From the NCBI GenBank assembly GCA_965202625.1, contig CBDBBI010000010.1, positions 2,853,377 through 2,917,376 of the forward strand: a DNA stretch of 64,000 nucleotides. Direction: 5' to 3'. Positions 18,001-24,000 of this stretch are shown piece after piece. Numbering within the stretch: the stretch's first letter is position 1; every line of letters starts with the position of its first letter. The DNA comes from a bacterium. Lineage in GTDB: Bacteria; UBA8248. The position numbers were made by a program.

Positions 18001-21000
18001 ATAGAAGAGATGAAAAGACGCGAAGACACGAAGAAGAAAATAGAATCTCTCTATAAGGAAAACAAATTGCGGGCGTGGGAGGTTGCAGCACTGGGCAACC
18101 GCATTGTCGCCCAAAGCTCCGTCCTGGTTTTCGGTTTGCCCATGATCGCCTCTAGCAAGATGGAAAGGCTCATCGTCAAGGCGGAAAACAAAAGCGCCGT
18201 CATTAAGGAACTGGACGCGCTGTATGGCGTCAACGAGGAAACGCTGTTTTCTGATTTTTCAGGATACGCCGTGGCGAACTCTTCCAGCAAGGCCTTTGAC
18301 GTTGGGCAAACTATTTCCTACTGGGAAGAACAAATTGAATCGGCGTCAGGCGAGACCGAAAAGGCGAAGGCGCATTTTCAGTGCGGGGTAGCCTATAGCG
18401 CAATTCGTGAGCATGAGGAAGCCATCGAACATTATGACGCAGCAATAGCAGGCTATAAGGCGATAAAAGTGGGCTATAACGAGGTGATAGCCCTCGATCC
18501 GCAACTTGCCTTAGCCTACAACAATCGCGGCACTGCCAAGGCGGCTCTAGGCAAGTATGAGGAAGCGATAGCGGATTATGACAAGGCGATAGCCCTCAAT
18601 GACAAGGCGATTGACTTCAATCCGCAATATGCCGAAGCTTACAGCAATCGTGGCGTTGCCAAGGCGGCTCTACGCAGGTATGAGGAAGCGATATCGGACT
18701 ATGACAAAGCAATAGCCCTCAATCCGCAATATGCCGAAGCTTACAGCAATCGTGGCGTTGCCAAGGCGGATCTAGGCCAACATCAGGAAGCGATGGCGGA
18801 CTTTGGCAAGGCGATAGACCTCAAGCCGCAATATGCCATATTGTATAACAATCGCGGCTTTGGGAATCAGGCTCTCGGCCACCATCAGGAAGCGATAGCG
18901 GATTATGACAAGGCGATACGCCTCAACCCGCAATATGCCTTAGCTTATTGTAATCGCGGCAATGCTCACTTATGCCTGGGCGCATGGCGAGAGGCCGAGA
19001 AAGATTTGACGAAAGCCAGGGACGTGGGGGGCGATGTCGTCGCCGAGTTCCAGAAAGATTACGGAAGCGTCGAGAAATTCGAGAAGCAATTCAGCGTCAC
19101 CCTGCCTGATTATATTAAAGCCCTGCTCAATCCGCCGCCGGAAGGCTGACGCCGCGCCCGGCTCACGCCCCCACGCGCTCATCGGCGAGGCCACTGCCGA
19201 GCGAAAAGCGGAAATAGACCGGCTGGCGGATGGTCTGTATAACCTCATGGAGGAGAAAATCGAGTCTGTGGAAGGTAAAGCATGAGCGAAATTTTTATCG
19301 CCTCGGTTGCGGAGTTTCACGCGAAACTACCCAAACTGGAAGGCGAAACCGGTTTTTTCTATCGCGGCCAGGCCGACTCCGCATGGCCGGTGGATTGCGC
19401 AGCCGCCCGACGCTTGAAAAATAAACCCGCCAGTCCCATTGAAGAGCAACTGATGAGCGATATCGTGATAAACAATCTCGTAACCTACATGGAGATTCTC
19501 ATTGCCAGAGCCAGAATGCGTGGTTTTCTCCCCGATGGCTTTGACCAAACCTCCACCGATTTGGAGCTGATGGCGCAGCTGCAGCATCAGGGGGCGGCGA
19601 CCGGGCTGATGGATTTTACCCGCCAGCCGCTGGTCGCTCTATGGTTCGCATGTAATGAACGCAGAGCAGAAGACGGCGCTTTCTATGTTCTCCCCCGCTC
19701 CGATATAGAAGAGATAAGAACACGCGAGGACACGGAGGAGGAAATAAAATTTTTCTATAAGGAAAGCAAATTGTGGGCGTGGGAGGTTTCGGCGCTGGGC
19801 AACCGCATCGTGGCCCAGAGCTCCGTCATGGTTTTCGGCTTGCCCATGATCGCTTCAAACGCGATGAAAAAGATTATCATCAAGGGGAAAAATAAACGCG
19901 CCGTCGTTGCGGAACTGAACGACTTGTATGGCGTCAACGAGGAAACGCTGTTTTCTGATTTTTCAGGATACGCCGTAGCGAACTCTTCCAGTAAAGCCTT
20001 TGACTTTGAGCAAATTATTTCCTACTCCTACTGGAAAAGAACAAATTGACTACTGAGAAGAATAAATCAAATCGGCGGCAGGCAAAAAAACAAATTGATG
20101 AATTGGCATTATACAAGATCGAAAAGGCGGAAGCGGAATTTCGTTGTGGGGTAACCTATAGCGCAATTCGTGAGTATGAGAAAGCCATTGAGCATTATGA
20201 CGAGGCGATAGCTCTCAATTCCCAATATGCCAACGCCTACCACGGGCGCGGCATCGCCAAGGCTATACTAGGCCAACATAAGAAAGCGATAGAGGACTAT
20301 GACGAGGCGATAGCTCTCAATCCGCAATATGCCGCAGCCTACCACGGGCGCGGCGTTGCCAGGGCGGCTCTCGGCCACCATCAGGAAGCGATAGCGGACT
20401 ATGACGAGGCGATAGCCCGCAATCCGCAATATGCCGAAGCCTACAACAATCGCGGCCTTGCCAAGGCTGAACTAGACCAATATCAGGAAGCTATAGCGGA
20501 TTATGGCAAGGCGATAGCCCGCAATCCGCAACTTGCCGTAGCCTACAACAATCGCGGCAATGCCGAGCAGGCTATAGACCAACATAAGGAAGCGATAGCG
20601 GATTATGACAAAGCAGTAGCCCTCGATCCGCAACTTGCCTTAGCCTACAATAATCGCGGCAATGCCAAGGCTGAACTAGACCAACATCAGGAAGCGATAG
20701 CGGACTATGACAAAGCAATAACCCTCAAGCCACAGCTTGTCGAAGCCTTCTGCAATCGCGGCACTGCCAAGGCTGAACTAGGCGAACCTCAGGAAGCGAT
20801 AGCGGACTATGACAAAGCAATAACCCTCAAGCCGCGATATGCCTTAGCCTACAACGGTCGCGGCAATGCCAAGGTTGAACTAGACCACCATCAGGAAGCG
20901 ATAGCGGACTATGACAAGGCAATCGATATCGATCCGCAACTTGCCTTAGCCTACAATAATCGCGGCAATGTCAAGCGATCTCTCGGCCACCATCAGGAAG

Positions 21001-24000
21001 CGATAGCGGACTATGACAAAGCAATCGCCCTCAATCCGCAATATGCCGAAGCCTACAACGGTCGCGGCAATGCCAAGGTTGAACTAGACCACCATCAGGA
21101 AGCGATAGCGGACTATGACAAGGCAATCGACCTCAATCCGAAATATGCCAAAGCTTACAGCAATCGCGGCGTTGCCAAGCAGGCTCTAGACAAACCTCAG
21201 GAAGCGATAGCGGACTTTAACGCAGCAACAACCCTCAATCGGCAATATGTCGCAGCCTACTACAATCGCGGCAATGCCAAGGCGGCTCTAGGCAAACGCG
21301 AGGAAGCGATGGAGGACTATGACAAAGCAATAGCCCTTGATCCGCAATATGCCGCAGCCTACAGCAATCGCGGCCTTGCCCACTTATGCCTGGGCGCATG
21401 GCGAGAGGCCGAGGAAGATTTGACGAGAGCCAGGGACGTGGGGGTCAACGTCGCTGCCGCGTTCCAGCGAGGTTACGGAAGCGTCGAGAAATTCGAGAAG
21501 CAATTCAGCGTCACCCTGCCTGAGAGCATCAAAGCCCTGCTTGAGCCGCCGGCGGAAGGCTGACGCCGCGCCCGGCTCAAGTCCCCACCCGCTCATTGGC
21601 GAGGCGCGCGATGGCGGAGGCGAGGATTTCCGCCCCCTTCACCACGTCGCCAAAGTGGGTGAACTCCTCCGGCGTGTGAGAGAGGCCCTTCACCGAGGGG
21701 ATGAACACCATGCCCATCGGGCATATTTCCGCCATGCGGCAGGCGTCGTGCACTCCGCCGCTTGAGAGCGTGAGCGCGGAGTGGCCCGTCTCGGCGGAGG
21801 CGCGGCGCAGCGCCCTCTGAACCTTCGCGGAGGTGGGGCGGACGGGCATCTCCGAGACGTCTAGGAGGCGGCCCCGCACCCCGCGCTCCTTCTCGATTGC
21901 GGCGAGGGTCGTTTCCATGCGCGCGAGGGCGCGCGTCATCGCCGCCTGGCTCCGGCTTCTGAGGTCGAAGGAGAGCCGCGCCCCTCCGGGAACGATGGAT
22001 ATCCAGCCCGGATGCGCTTCCATCTCCCCGAAGGTGAGAGTGAGGCGCTGGGAGGCGGGCGCGCTGCGCACCATGCGCTCCATCCGCACCATGAAATCCG
22101 CCGCCGCCATGCCGGCGTCCTTGCGGTAGGGCATGGGCTGTCCGCCCGAGTGGGCCGTGACGCCCTCAAAGCGAACCTCGCCCCGCGCGTAGCCCACCAC
22201 CCGATCCACGATCCCGATGGGCGTCTGCCTGGATTCCAGAACCGGGCCCTGCTCGATGTGCAGCTCGAGGAACGCCTTGAGCGCACCCTTTGGAATGCGG
22301 CAAGCGCGCACGCGCGCGGGGTTTCCGCCCATGTTTTCGATGGCCGCATACAGAGATTTTCCGGTGGGCGGATGGAGCGTTTTTCGCAAATCTCTCACGC
22401 CCACAAGGCCCGCCGCGACGCTGCTGCCGAACACCGTCATTCCGCAGGCGGATTCCTCTCCCACGAAGGCCACCACCTCGATGGGGTGATCGTGGGCGAG
22501 ACCCGTCTCGGCGATGCGCCGCGCCGCCTCGAGAGCCGTGAGGACGCCCGCCGGGCCGTCGAACCGACCGCCCGGGCTTTGCGAGTCGAGATGCGAGCCG
22601 GCCATCACGGCGGGCAGCCCCCGCCGGCGGCCCTCTTTTCTGCCGTATAGGTTTCCCACGGCGTCCACGCGCGTCTGGAGGCCCGCCTCCCGCATCCATC
22701 CCTCGACGAGGGTGCGCACCTGGTTGTAGGCCGGCGTGAACGCCACGCGGTCAAGACCCGTTTTTCCGTATTTGCCGATCTCGGCCTGGGCGTTGAACTC
22801 GCGCCTTATGCGGGCGCGGTTCGCGCGAAGGGGAAATGCGTTTGCCGGGGGCATGGCCGGGTTCCTCACGATGCGCGTATCAGGGCTAGAAGAGCTCCCC
22901 CGGCATGGGGACTTCCTCGTAGTCCTCGGGACGCAAGGGATCTTTCGGCCGAATCTCCAACATGCCGAAGTAGTGATAGGTCTGCCTTAAATGCTGAAAG
23001 GCGTGGCCCAGGGCGAGGAGCATCAATGCGCGCACGGAGATGGTGCCCATGTAGCTTGACACCTCTTTGGAGAGCGCATCGTCCCCCTCGGCGAGAAAAT
23101 CGACGAGCCGCACCTGGACTTCATCCCCGTAGGCGCAGACGTCCTCCGGTGTGCGGTAGTCGTTCGCCTTGGCCTCGTATTGCCGCACCATCTCCTCGGT
23201 GTATTCTCCCGAGGCATGGGACTGCATCACCAGGTCCGGCCGCTCGAAGGAGTGCCAGGTGAGCTGGCGGAGCGTTCTGGGCCTGCCGGGGGAAACCCAG
23301 TCGAGCGTCTCCTGCGGAATCTGGCGAATCGCTCGGCGCAAGGCGTCGAACGCCATCTCGAAGTAGCGCAGCATTTCCTCCGCAGAGAGGCCGCTCGCTC
23401 CTTCTTGCGGGACGTCAAAGGCGCTCCGGAGCGCGTCCACGTCGTAGCCCACCACCACGTCCGCCCCCCGAACGGAGACGGGCAGGGATTTCACTCCCAG
23501 CGCCTCAAGTTCCGCCTGGGCCTCCGCGTCGTTCGTGCAGTCTCTGTTGATGACTTCCAGGCCGTTCGACGAGAGAAACTCTCTCGTGAGAGCACAGGTG
23601 TATCAGCCGTGCCGCGTATAGACCTTGACCGCTTCCATGGTTTCTCTCCTGAATGATGAAAGATGCGCGAACCATACCAAAACGGCGGAGCCTGGGAAAA
23701 CGCCGGAAGGAGGGCGGCTGGCGGATGGAGCGCGCGTGCTTTACTATTGCGGAACCATCCGGGCGGAACCATCCGGAACATTATGGAACCATTCGGAATA
23801 GGGTCGCGCGTCTGGCCCGGCGGATGCCTGGAGGGTGCTCTGAAACGTCTCGGTGGTTCGTGAAGGGCGAAGCGGATGGTTTCTGCGTCCTGCGGATGGA
23901 CAACTGATTCGTCCTGCGTCTTCGGCCTGCGGACAACTGAGCGAGAAGGCGTCTTGACCGCCGCCGCGCGGCTTCTGGATGGGATGGGCGCTTCGCGCCG

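Follow-up and report, generated by a model that had tools for sequence, protein, structure and literature searches.

TPRs vary most at positions 2, 5, 9, 12, 13, 33, and 34, on the concave face, in the positional analysis of Magliery and Regan (2005, BMC Bioinformatics 6:240, PMC1261162), which also notes that positions 2, 5, 9, 12, and 13 contact the ligand in HOP TPR1 and TPR2A. The high-internal-conservation (HIC) TPR, ANK, and WD repeats of fungal NLRs, as outlined by Dyrka et al. (2014, Genome Biol Evol 6:3137), belong to proteins that combine an effector with a repeat array. Their repeat number differs from copy to copy, the repeats recombine with each other, and the changes are focused on the predicted binding surface. 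Iyer et al. (2022, PMC9503650) assign Frg to the ART superfamily and regard it as a potential antiviral effector that may be a NADase. PDC-S15, a defence candidate, is described as uncharacterised where it is mentioned in PMC12482510.

The window analyzed here is a stretch of 64,000 nucleotides of contig CBDBBI010000010.1 from a bacterium of the lineage UBA8248, and it carries two FRG-TPR paralogs, A and B. The first-pass annotation had described positions 20229-21400 as a hypervariable TPR array of a diversifying receptor fused to an FRG effector. This interval lies within the 13-unit array of paralog B, and 20229 is the first base of unit B01. The two paralogs are arranged as follows.

17587-19149, + strand: paralog A, an intact FRG-TPR protein of 520 aa (ORF; Pfam FRG and TPR_1; PADLOC PDC-S15)
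19282-20049, + strand: FRG part of paralog B, an ORF of 255 aa that ends at the TGA at 20047-20049
20010-20049, + strand: linker frame break of paralog B, the overlap of the FRG and TPR frames, read from the sequence
20046-21563, + strand: TPR part of paralog B, an open frame of 505 aa with its first possible start at the TTG at 20046

Paralog A consists of the FRG domain, six TPR units (about 18364-19038), and a conserved C-terminal tail of 36 aa. The TPR part of paralog B contains 13 units at 20127-21452, followed by the conserved tail at 21453-21560. The proposed fusion to an FRG effector is therefore correct for paralog A and incorrect for paralog B, in which the TPR frame is -1 relative to the FRG frame. 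The linker of paralog B differs from that of paralog A by a net +2 nt and by in-frame insertions. Two contigs from public runs span the break: one (X4 record 11, 19947-20395) has 0 differences, and the other (X5 record 19, 19962-20300) has five other letters and no gaps. Paralog B may be a recently broken copy, or it may function as two polypeptides.

The domain proposed as an ART-superfamily antiviral effector in PMC9503650 is the one present in both paralogs, where FRG (PF08867) scores 54.7 bits (A) and 57.5 bits (B) against a cut-off of 25. All 16 aligned sequences have R28, G29, and Q30 of the FRG motif. The FRG part matches 14-15 PDC-S15 models, with best E-values of 1.4e-28 (A) and 2.2e-28 (FRG part of B) at positions 40-263 of the 276 in PDLC04938. 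These models are confined to the FRG part; the TPR array is matched by other, generic TPR models. Judged by sequence, the genes encode FRG (putatively ART-like) plus TPR proteins that match the defence candidate PDC-S15. The FRG proposal reportedly comes from Burroughs and Aravind in 2020. The predicted FRG model has a mean pLDDT of 72.7; Foldseek against the PDB returned nothing at E<=0.001, with ART toxins as the best matches (E 0.19-1). A wide VIA-align search gave a best Z of 5.9, below the reliable level of the tool, with mostly ART-fold proteins in the top rows.

Scanning of 50 same-strand upstream ORFs in related loci identified 11 of restriction-modification type, three with TIR, two of other defence type (Schlafen/AlbA_2 and DUF499), and 34 of non-defence type. 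Some relatives have their FRG-TPR genes directly 3' of type IIG or type ISP restriction genes. At one such locus (L005), the FRG-TPR gene begins before an Eco57I-like gene ends, and is itself followed by another FRG-TPR paralog. This arrangement is similar to that of the PrrC anticodon nuclease in the EcoprrI restriction locus, an abortive-infection effector whose gene is inside or directly behind a restriction-modification gene, which suggests a guard activated by an attack on the restriction enzyme. The likeness concerns gene arrangement only, since the effector fold and the sensor differ and the restriction gene of the window is reduced to its 3' tail. A search of 18 genomes from the genus found FRG matches in 4, none above 43% identity, and GC content is about 52% in the region of about 15500-21500 versus about 65% in the flanks. 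This patchy distribution and low GC indicate that the FRG-TPR gene is probably of accessory character.

The array of paralog B is composed of 13 in-frame units (B00-B12, + strand), each exactly 102 nt long, with no stop or indel across 1,326 nt. TRF reports it with period 102, 11.6 copies, and 81% matches. Among the Pfam families considered (TPR_1, TPR_2, and TPR_11), TPR_1 was found in 13 stretches of paralog B (E=2.4e-104) and six of paralog A (E=5.8e-44), in agreement with the unit numbers of 13 and 6 given earlier. The unit is a 34-residue helix-turn-helix, and in the 15 internal units pooled from both paralogs for site statistics, G8, A20, and A27 are present in 15 of 15 and P32 in 14 of 15. 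Mean unit-to-unit identity is 78% as DNA and 63% as protein (protein range 47-85%).

Amino-acid entropy in these 15 units is highest at position 2 (2.47 bits), followed by positions 9 (2.21), 16 (2.04), 5 (1.86), 13 (1.82), 29 (1.75), and 12 and 17 (1.55 each). Positions 16, 17, and 29 lie outside the groove and are as variable as the groove positions, while position 6 is only N or G. The codon sets previously listed for positions 2, 5, 6, and 9 were all recovered. The description of scaffold codons as nearly invariant was not borne out, because invariant columns make up only 11/34 of first, 10/34 of second, and 9/34 of third codon positions, and positions 16, 17, and 29 vary. The third-base count also contradicts the statement that third bases are mostly fixed, as do 43 synonymous changes among the units over about 22.5 synonymous sites (pairwise pS 0.25).

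The variable positions 2, 5, 9, 12, and 13 of the array are the general TPR variable positions reported by Magliery and Regan (2005). That comparison, as described there, covers unrelated TPRs, whereas the present units belong to one gene and are 78% identical as DNA, which makes the scaffold-groove contrast visible at the codon level. Here, positions 33 and 34 are not especially variable, but 16, 17, and 29 are. Among family members, surveyed in the 39 of 120 listed members in which the pattern detected at least five units, the most variable positions are 9, 5, 12, 2, 33, and 13. Seven homologous arrays compared as DNA have groove pN of 0.31-0.64 versus 0.11-0.30 elsewhere, with unit identity of 0.60-0.82. 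The variability of the array thus appears to be the ordinary TPR pattern, which recurs in the family and is not special to this gene.

Changes were inferred on a tree of the 15 units, with codons 2, 5, 6, 9, 12, and 13 defined as the groove. These six codons carry 44.7 of 118 nonsynonymous changes (p=0.0006 against random six-codon sets) and 9.3 of 43 synonymous changes (p=0.28), showing that silent changes are not concentrated in the groove. Amino-acid changes are therefore unevenly spread, and the claim of hypervariability at the groove was confirmed; the units of both paralogs differ mostly at positions 2, 5, 9, 12, and 13. Omega for the pooled groove codons is 1.62, compared with 0.59 in the remaining 28 codons. 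The groove value gives a Poisson p of 0.002 in a test that ignores recombination and error in the silent rate. None of the 34 codons passes correction for 34 tests as a single site of positive selection; position 2 comes closest (p=0.003). Support for positive selection at the groove is modest, and because the tree-based count ignores recombination, relaxed constraint alone could yield most of the pattern.

Recombination was the other process proposed by the first-pass annotation, and a recognition array on an FRG effector shaped by the two agrees with the data. The PHI test on the units gave p<0.0005 (k=5), p=0.01 (k=10), and p=0.33 (k=15), and the nearest-neighbour unit changes between thirds of one unit, revealing mosaic units. 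The stretch of about 80 nt said to be common to repeats 8 and 10 was recovered in B07 and B09 (B00 being repeat 1), which are identical at 94 of 102 positions, and a further partial duplication lies in paralog A.

20846-20926, + strand: identical tract of 81 nt in B07, equal to 21050-21130 in B09 and their longest identical run; a gene-conversion or duplication tract
18578-18621, + strand: in-frame partial duplication in the paralog A array (TRF: 21-nt unit, 2.1 copies), adding seven residues

A relative (P0002) is 91% identical in its FRG part, yet it has a different array that includes two identical units. It has six units, as does paralog A, against the 13 of paralog B; these are not alleles of one locus. 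Mosaicism and variation in unit number are together indicative of unequal crossover and gene conversion.

These properties recall the HIC repeats of fungal NLRs. There, the repeat number differs between alleles, while here it differs between paralogs and a relative, and positive selection is weakly supported in this array. The mean protein identity of its units (63%) is also below the HIC criterion of at least 85% over at least 100 residues stated by Dyrka et al. (2014). Pfam searches at E<=0.01 found no NACHT or NB-ARC in either paralog. With these domains missing and unit identity below 85%, the array was rejected as that of an HIC-repeat NLR of the fungal or bacterial STAND receptor kind.

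A trans-acting adenine-mutagenic process had also been suggested, in which a DGR or another adenine-specific mutator rewrites the AAY codons of the array. AAY is the commonest codon type at codons 5, 6, and 9, and its variants differ at the first two bases, which is the sole likeness to DGRs. DGRs target a single variable region, in contrast to the tandem array found here, and their targets typically have C-type-lectin or Ig-like folds. When the unit consensus was used as a stand-in for a DGR template, paralog B alone had 79 of 151 mismatch cells (52%) in its consensus-A columns, which are 36 of 102 columns (35%, p=0.0006). This excess persists without the groove codons (p=0.002) and is explained only loosely by the A-rich codons of exposed polar residues together with drift to the GC-rich host composition. 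Across all 15 units, however, consensus-A columns hold 77 of 211 mismatch cells, and the excess falls short of significance (p=0.07-0.18). The remaining cells, 134 of 211 in the 15 units and 72 of 151 in paralog B, are in non-A columns, so 48-64% of the mismatches are at non-A sites. Asn is simply the commonest residue family-wide at positions 5, 6, and 9 (84, 175, and 44 of 227 units, respectively), which accounts for the AAY-to-NNY pattern at these codons; the pattern does not extend to other codons. The seven homologous arrays have the same site pattern, with A shares of mismatches of 0.25-0.44. In the 99.69%-complete genome, RVT_1 gave no matches and no first-look candidates, although 3 of the 14 control genomes were positive in this search. 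Nor does the genome of the window contain a template copy: the 1172-nt stretch recovered itself and paralog A (75% identity) there and nothing else. Contigs of four public runs, which drop rare variants, contain no indel in the stretch, and the few letter differences inside the array are silent or at non-groove codons. The missing reverse transcriptase, the missing template repeat, and the lack of adenine restriction largely rule out the array as a DGR target, and an adenine-specific mutator, DGR or other, is extremely improbable.

Neutral decay could also produce variation, if paralog B is a pseudogene whose reading frame was lost in the linker. The separate frames with the stop at 20047-20049, the presence of the break in independent contigs, and the high overall dN/dS among the units (about 0.8) are in favor of decay, and part of the variation of this frame-broken paralog may be neutral. 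Nevertheless, all 13 units have kept their exact length without a stop or indel, the scaffold codons are still constrained, with G8, A20, and A27 invariant, and the intact paralog A and seven intact homologous arrays share the pattern. The FRG part of paralog B likewise retains every family-invariant residue, and its comparison with paralog A gives dS 0.25, dN 0.11, and a ratio of 0.43. Decay as the main source of the variation in 20229-21400 is therefore very unlikely. TPR proteins in sponge-associated lineages are usually discussed as host-interaction factors, and the groove may be tuned to host rather than phage proteins if the product is a eukaryotic-like TPR protein of a sponge symbiont. 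The related loci include 23 of 78 in Poribacteria, 14 of 78 in Caldilineaceae, and 7 of 78 in Latescibacterota metagenome-assembled genomes, and parts of the stretch are present in three sponge-metagenome runs. Sponge-symbiont papers discuss TPR eukaryotic-like proteins, but restriction systems are also reported as enriched in this literature, so the habitat cannot tell the two readings apart. No N-terminal hydrophobic signal was seen by eye in MSEICVASVAEFH..., relatives are linked directly to restriction genes, TIR proteins, and other defence-type genes, and the FRG part matches a defence-candidate model set. Host interaction is thus an unlikely role.

The array is probably the recognition arm of an FRG-TPR protein, with ordinary TPR variation and no dedicated mutator, and the protein is a candidate phage-defence sensor-effector. 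The scaffold residues of the 34-residue unit would be kept by purifying selection, while concave-face residues 2, 5, 9, 12, 13, and partly 6, together with loop residues 16, 17, and 29, would be free or mildly driven to change. Units this alike are unusual for TPRs and may reflect a young array in which unequal crossover and gene conversion maintain a flux; this flux would give rise to mosaic units, to the 81-nt tract and partial duplications, and to the differing unit numbers of paralog A, paralog B, and the close relative. The protein may act in the cytoplasm as a one-protein phage-defence sensor-effector. On binding a foreign (or restriction-enzyme-related) protein in its TPR groove, it would release the FRG domain (ADP-ribosyltransferase fold, proposed NADase), leading to abortive infection. 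Paralogs A and B may carry different specificities, and arrays that differ between paralogs at the expected partner-contact residues are the usual behaviour of this repeat type. More tentatively, it is possible that repeat-shuffling immune receptors have a NOD-less bacterial counterpart in the FRG-TPR proteins. These would form a one-protein abortive-infection module located immediately downstream of type IIG or type ISP restriction genes, perhaps as their guard. Unequal crossover would re-assort its consensus-like array, selection at the groove would let it keep pace with phage proteins as they change, and the module would have spread horizontally among sponge-associated bacteria of many phyla.

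The surroundings of the paralogs contain gene remnants and partial copies.

15697-15905, + strand: third, truncated copy, consisting of the restriction-gene tail and about the first 30 FRG codons (weak FRG match; alignment)
17051-17689, - strand: IS1595-family transposase remnant, C-terminal part only (Pfam DDE_Tnp_IS1595, E=6.7e-13, profile positions 66-153 of 153)
17469-17586, + strand: 3'-end remnant of a restriction-modification gene, with a peptide ending ...EIDRLADGLYNLTEEEMESVEGKA (ORF 17402-17590)
19147-19281, + strand: tandem-duplication junction (alignment; direct repeats D3 and D4, spacing 1695 nt)

The tandem duplication happened in place. At the junction, the 45-50 nt found after paralog B (the 3' end of an M20 peptidase gene encoded on the opposite strand) are present as a copy, and behind it the restriction-gene tail occurs a second time. 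The remnant at 17469-17586 belongs to repeat families D3 and D4, and its stop and the ATG start of paralog A overlap in the sequence ATGA. The same tail terminates the intact Eco57I-like gene that precedes the FRG-TPR gene in two related loci (L005 and L004). In the window, the 3' tail of the restriction gene stands ahead of each FRG-TPR copy, and the restriction gene itself is gone. The truncated copy at 15697-15905 belongs to repeat families D4 and D5, with 85-86% identity.

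The array at 20229-21400, which the first-pass annotation described as hypervariable, is located in paralog B, the second of two tandem FRG-TPR paralogs. In paralog A, an N-terminal FRG domain (PF08867, 54.7 bits) is joined to six TPR units, and a C-terminal tail of 36 residues ends the protein. Paralog B is built likewise but is split over two frames, and its second frame is open from 20010, with a TTG at 20046 as the earliest possible start. The unit numbers reported earlier (6 in A and 13 in B) are real; position 20229 is base 1 of the second unit, and the unit register used here is the same as in that annotation. 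The two genes are arranged as follows.

17587-19149, plus strand: paralog A, intact open reading frame of 520 residues
19282-20049, plus strand: FRG open frame of paralog B, 255 codons, ending at a TGA
20046-21563, plus strand: TPR open frame of paralog B, 13 TPR units and tail
20127-21452, plus strand: the 13 TPR units of paralog B, each exactly 102 nt

In the 15 internal units from the two paralogs, amino-acid entropy was highest at position 2 (2.47 bits), followed by positions 9, 16, 5, 13, 29, 12, and 17, and G8, A20, and A27 were unchanged in all 15. Changes were counted by codon parsimony on a maximum-likelihood tree of these units, which gave 118 nonsynonymous and 43 synonymous changes. 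The proposed concentration of change on the ligand groove was confirmed: codons 2, 5, 6, 9, 12, and 13 carried 44.7 of the 118 nonsynonymous changes, a share reached by 0.06% of random six-codon sets. The same codons carried 9.3 of the 43 synonymous changes, which was reached by 28% of random draws. The groove codons had a pooled omega of 1.62, and the remaining 28 codons one of 0.59. Estimates by the pairwise Nei-Gojobori method were in line with the tree (pN 0.47 in the groove and 0.15 in the other codons; overall pS 0.25). The codon sets listed previously for the variable positions were found as described, and so was the tract shared by two units of paralog B, B07 and B09, which are identical at 94 of 102 nt with an identical run of 81 nt. 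Two further descriptions were overstated. Third bases had been called mostly fixed, and only 9 of the 34 third-position columns are invariant, against 11 at first and 10 at second positions. Scaffold codons had been called nearly invariant, and the non-groove positions 16, 17, and 29 are as variable as the groove.

This site pattern is not special to paralog B. According to Magliery and Regan (PMC1261162), the most variable positions in TPRs at large are 2, 5, 9, 12, 13, 33, and 34, all of which are on the concave face, and the ligand contacts of HOP are at positions 2, 5, 6, 9, 12, and 13. A search with the FRG part returned 524 relatives. TPR families were present in 108 of the 120 relatives listed, which are 290-824 residues long, and a strict TPR-unit pattern recognized at least five units in only 39 of these 120 proteins. 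Within-array variability in the 39 proteins was highest at positions 9, 5, 12, 2, 33, and 13, and Asn was commonest at positions 5, 6, and 9 (84, 175, and 44 of 227 units, respectively). Asn is encoded only by AAY codons; therefore, any Asn position that varies necessarily has the look of an AAY-to-NNY change. For comparison at the DNA level, a strict pattern picked up the FRG motif in 27 of the 78 related loci; of these, the seven with at least five units were used. The seven homologous arrays gave the same picture, with units 60-82% identical, pN of 0.31-0.64 in the groove versus 0.11-0.30 elsewhere, and 0.25-0.44 of mismatches in consensus-A columns. The array is an ordinary case, and a good one, of a known kind.

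The AAY-to-NNY look had been attributed either to recombination with positive selection or to an adenine mutator of the diversity-generating (DGR) type. When the genome (99.69% complete) was searched in six frames, no reverse transcriptase (RVT_1) was found, while control genomes gave matches, and no template copy was found in the genome besides the array itself and paralog A. The unit consensus was used as a stand-in for a template in mismatch counts. In the 15-unit set, 77 of 211 mismatch cells were at A columns, which is not significant and does not bear out adenine-restricted change. What favors the mutator is paralog B alone, where 79 of 151 mismatch cells were at consensus-A columns (p=0.0006); in units B01-B11 (20229-21350), A columns made up 35% of the columns and held 52% of the mismatches. 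This excess holds without the groove codons and is absent from the 15-unit set. The commonest change in paralog B is A-to-G, with 39 cells versus 9 for G-to-A. A likely partial explanation of the excess is the A-rich codons of exposed polar residues together with drift of this island, at 52% GC, towards the 65% GC of the genome. About half of the differences are at non-A bases and the array therefore lacks an adenine-restricted DGR signature; with neither reverse transcriptase nor template, the present data exclude a DGR to the extent that they can. General TPR groove variability and concerted evolution suffice for the pattern, and an AAY-to-NNY look in a repeat array need not imply a mutator.

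Recombination among units is visible in several ways. The pairwise homoplasy index (42 informative sites) was below that of 2000 site shuffles, with p<0.0005 for neighbouring sites and p=0.01 at k=10, and the nearest relative of a unit differs between thirds of the unit. Paralog A contains a 21-nt in-frame partial duplication. A metagenome protein, P0002, shares 91% identity with A over the FRG part and has a different array, two units of which are identical. The mosaic units, the partial duplication, and the differing array of P0002 indicate that turnover in the arrays outpaces divergence of the effector domain. Population variation was checked in the assembled contigs of four runs, not in raw reads, and contigs drop rare variants. 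The contigs showed no indels in the stretch, low-level variants being invisible in such data. The few variant letters inside the array came from one sponge-metagenome contig and were silent or in non-groove codons, and most remaining contig differences were paralog A sequence aligned to B.

Among described phenomena, the closest is that of the high-internal-conservation (HIC) repeat arrays of fungal NLRs, in which repeat number is polymorphic, repeats recombine with one another, and the binding surface is under positive selection (Dyrka et al. 2014). The present array works similarly but is not a member of this group: it has no NACHT or NB-ARC module, and its units are 63% identical, not 85% as in HIC arrays. 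As a family, FRG-TPR genes offer a tractable system in which to ask how recognition specificity evolves in bacteria when no nucleotide-binding switch module is present.

The part worth pursuing is the family-level link of FRG-TPR genes with restriction genes, which are often directly 5' of them. An upstream same-strand open frame of at least 200 codons ending within 500 nt was present in 51 of the 78 related loci, and 50 of these frames were scanned (L015 was left out, its upstream-ORF coordinates being the same as those of L014). Eleven of the 50 were of restriction-modification type (five Eco57I-like, three type ISP, one type I, one other N6 methylase, and one ResIII). Six were further TPR or FRG-TPR genes, two were of other defence types (Schlafen/AlbA_2 and DUF499), and three carried TIR domains. 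In locus L005, an Eco57I-like gene (1201 residues) overlaps the FRG-TPR start, and a further FRG-TPR paralog (931 residues) comes next; L004 and L008 are arranged similarly, and the restriction gene is intact in these relatives. The TIR-domain genes directly upstream of FRG genes are listed by locus.

L040, 4109-5671: TIR-domain gene
L054, 4482-5699: TIR-domain gene
L072, 4580-5797: TIR-domain gene

One of the three is a TIR-TPR fusion, also counted among the six TPR genes. This arrangement suggests that TIR and FRG may be interchangeable effectors on similar TPR arms. A restriction-modification gene and a nuclease gene lie within 12 kb upstream in the window, with a branched-chain amino-acid ABC transporter operon between them.

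6325-9735, minus strand: type ISP restriction-modification gene (Type_ISP_C E=4e-70)
14780-15562, minus strand: REase-ARP nuclease gene

The FRG part matches 14-15 PADLOC PDC-S15 models (best E=1.4e-28), and PDC-S15 is described as uncharacterised in PMC12482510. Frg is placed in the ADP-ribosyltransferase (ART) superfamily by Iyer et al. (PMC9503650), who suggest an antiviral effector that might be an NADase. 'Frg' is absent from Kaur et al. 2020 (PMC7159879), so that paper is not a source for the FRG-TPR architecture. The structure model of the FRG part had a mean pLDDT of 72.7. No PDB entry matched the model at E<=0.001 in Foldseek (best E 0.19), and the structural matches, mostly ART-fold proteins, were weak (best Z 5.9). 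The modelled fold is consistent with the ART superfamily. The FRG-TPR protein is most likely a cytoplasmic sensor-effector, in which binding of a foreign protein in the TPR groove would be followed by action of the FRG domain on NAD+ or a target. The location behind a restriction gene suggests that it may act as a guard. The 78 related loci are mostly from Poribacteria (23), Caldilineaceae (14), Latescibacterota (7), and other metagenome-assembled genomes, and parts of the stretch are present in three sponge-metagenome runs; therefore, a host-interaction role, as discussed for TPR proteins of sponge symbionts, remains a rival to the sensor-effector reading. The FRG-TPR genes are uncharacterised candidates for defence, combining an effector that plausibly acts on NAD with a sensor that is easily re-tuned.

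In front of each FRG start lie 90-110 nt from the 3' end of a restriction-modification gene, the stop of which overlaps the ATG. The 45-50 nt 3' of paralog B are part of the neighbouring M20 peptidase gene, and a second copy is found 3' of A; this repetition indicates that A and B arose in place by tandem duplication of a 1695-nt unit. Further traces lie upstream.

15697-15905: third, truncated copy, with the restriction-gene 3' tail and about the first 30 FRG codons (85-86% identity to the A and B starts)
15904-16023 and 17419-17538: inverted repeat of 120 nt, 98% complementary
16073-17050: arginase-family gene inside the inverted repeat
17051-17689, minus strand: IS1595 transposase remnant bracketed by the inverted repeat

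The inverted repeat appears to be a scar, left when an older restriction-gene/FRG-TPR unit took an IS-mediated insertion or inversion. The region of about 15500-21560, which spans the arginase-family gene and both FRG-TPR paralogs, has a GC content of about 50-55%, compared with 61-71% in flanking genes and 65% in the genome, which is consistent with horizontal acquisition. The FRG-TPR gene is accessory. Only 4 of 18 same-genus genomes have an FRG match and none exceeds 43% identity.

Compared with A, the linker of B carries insertions that keep the frame, plus two extra bases net. In two public runs, one of which may be the source sample, contigs span the break without an inserted or missing letter (19947-20395 and 19962-20300); therefore, it is not an assembly slip. 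The FRG part of B retains all residues invariant in the family alignment (16 sequences) and differs from A with a dS of 0.25 and a dN of 0.11, which argues that the break is recent or tolerated. The invariant residues include R28, H99, S178, and E218. Programmed frameshifting was considered and rejected, as 20010-20049 has no X XXY YYZ slippery site or long homopolymer. Among the FRG family proteins, P0017 (314 aa) is 96% identical to residues 1-309 of P0023 (753 aa), and the two diverge directly after a lysine run in the FRG-TPR linker. This pair represents a second, independent linker break, perhaps at an A-tract.
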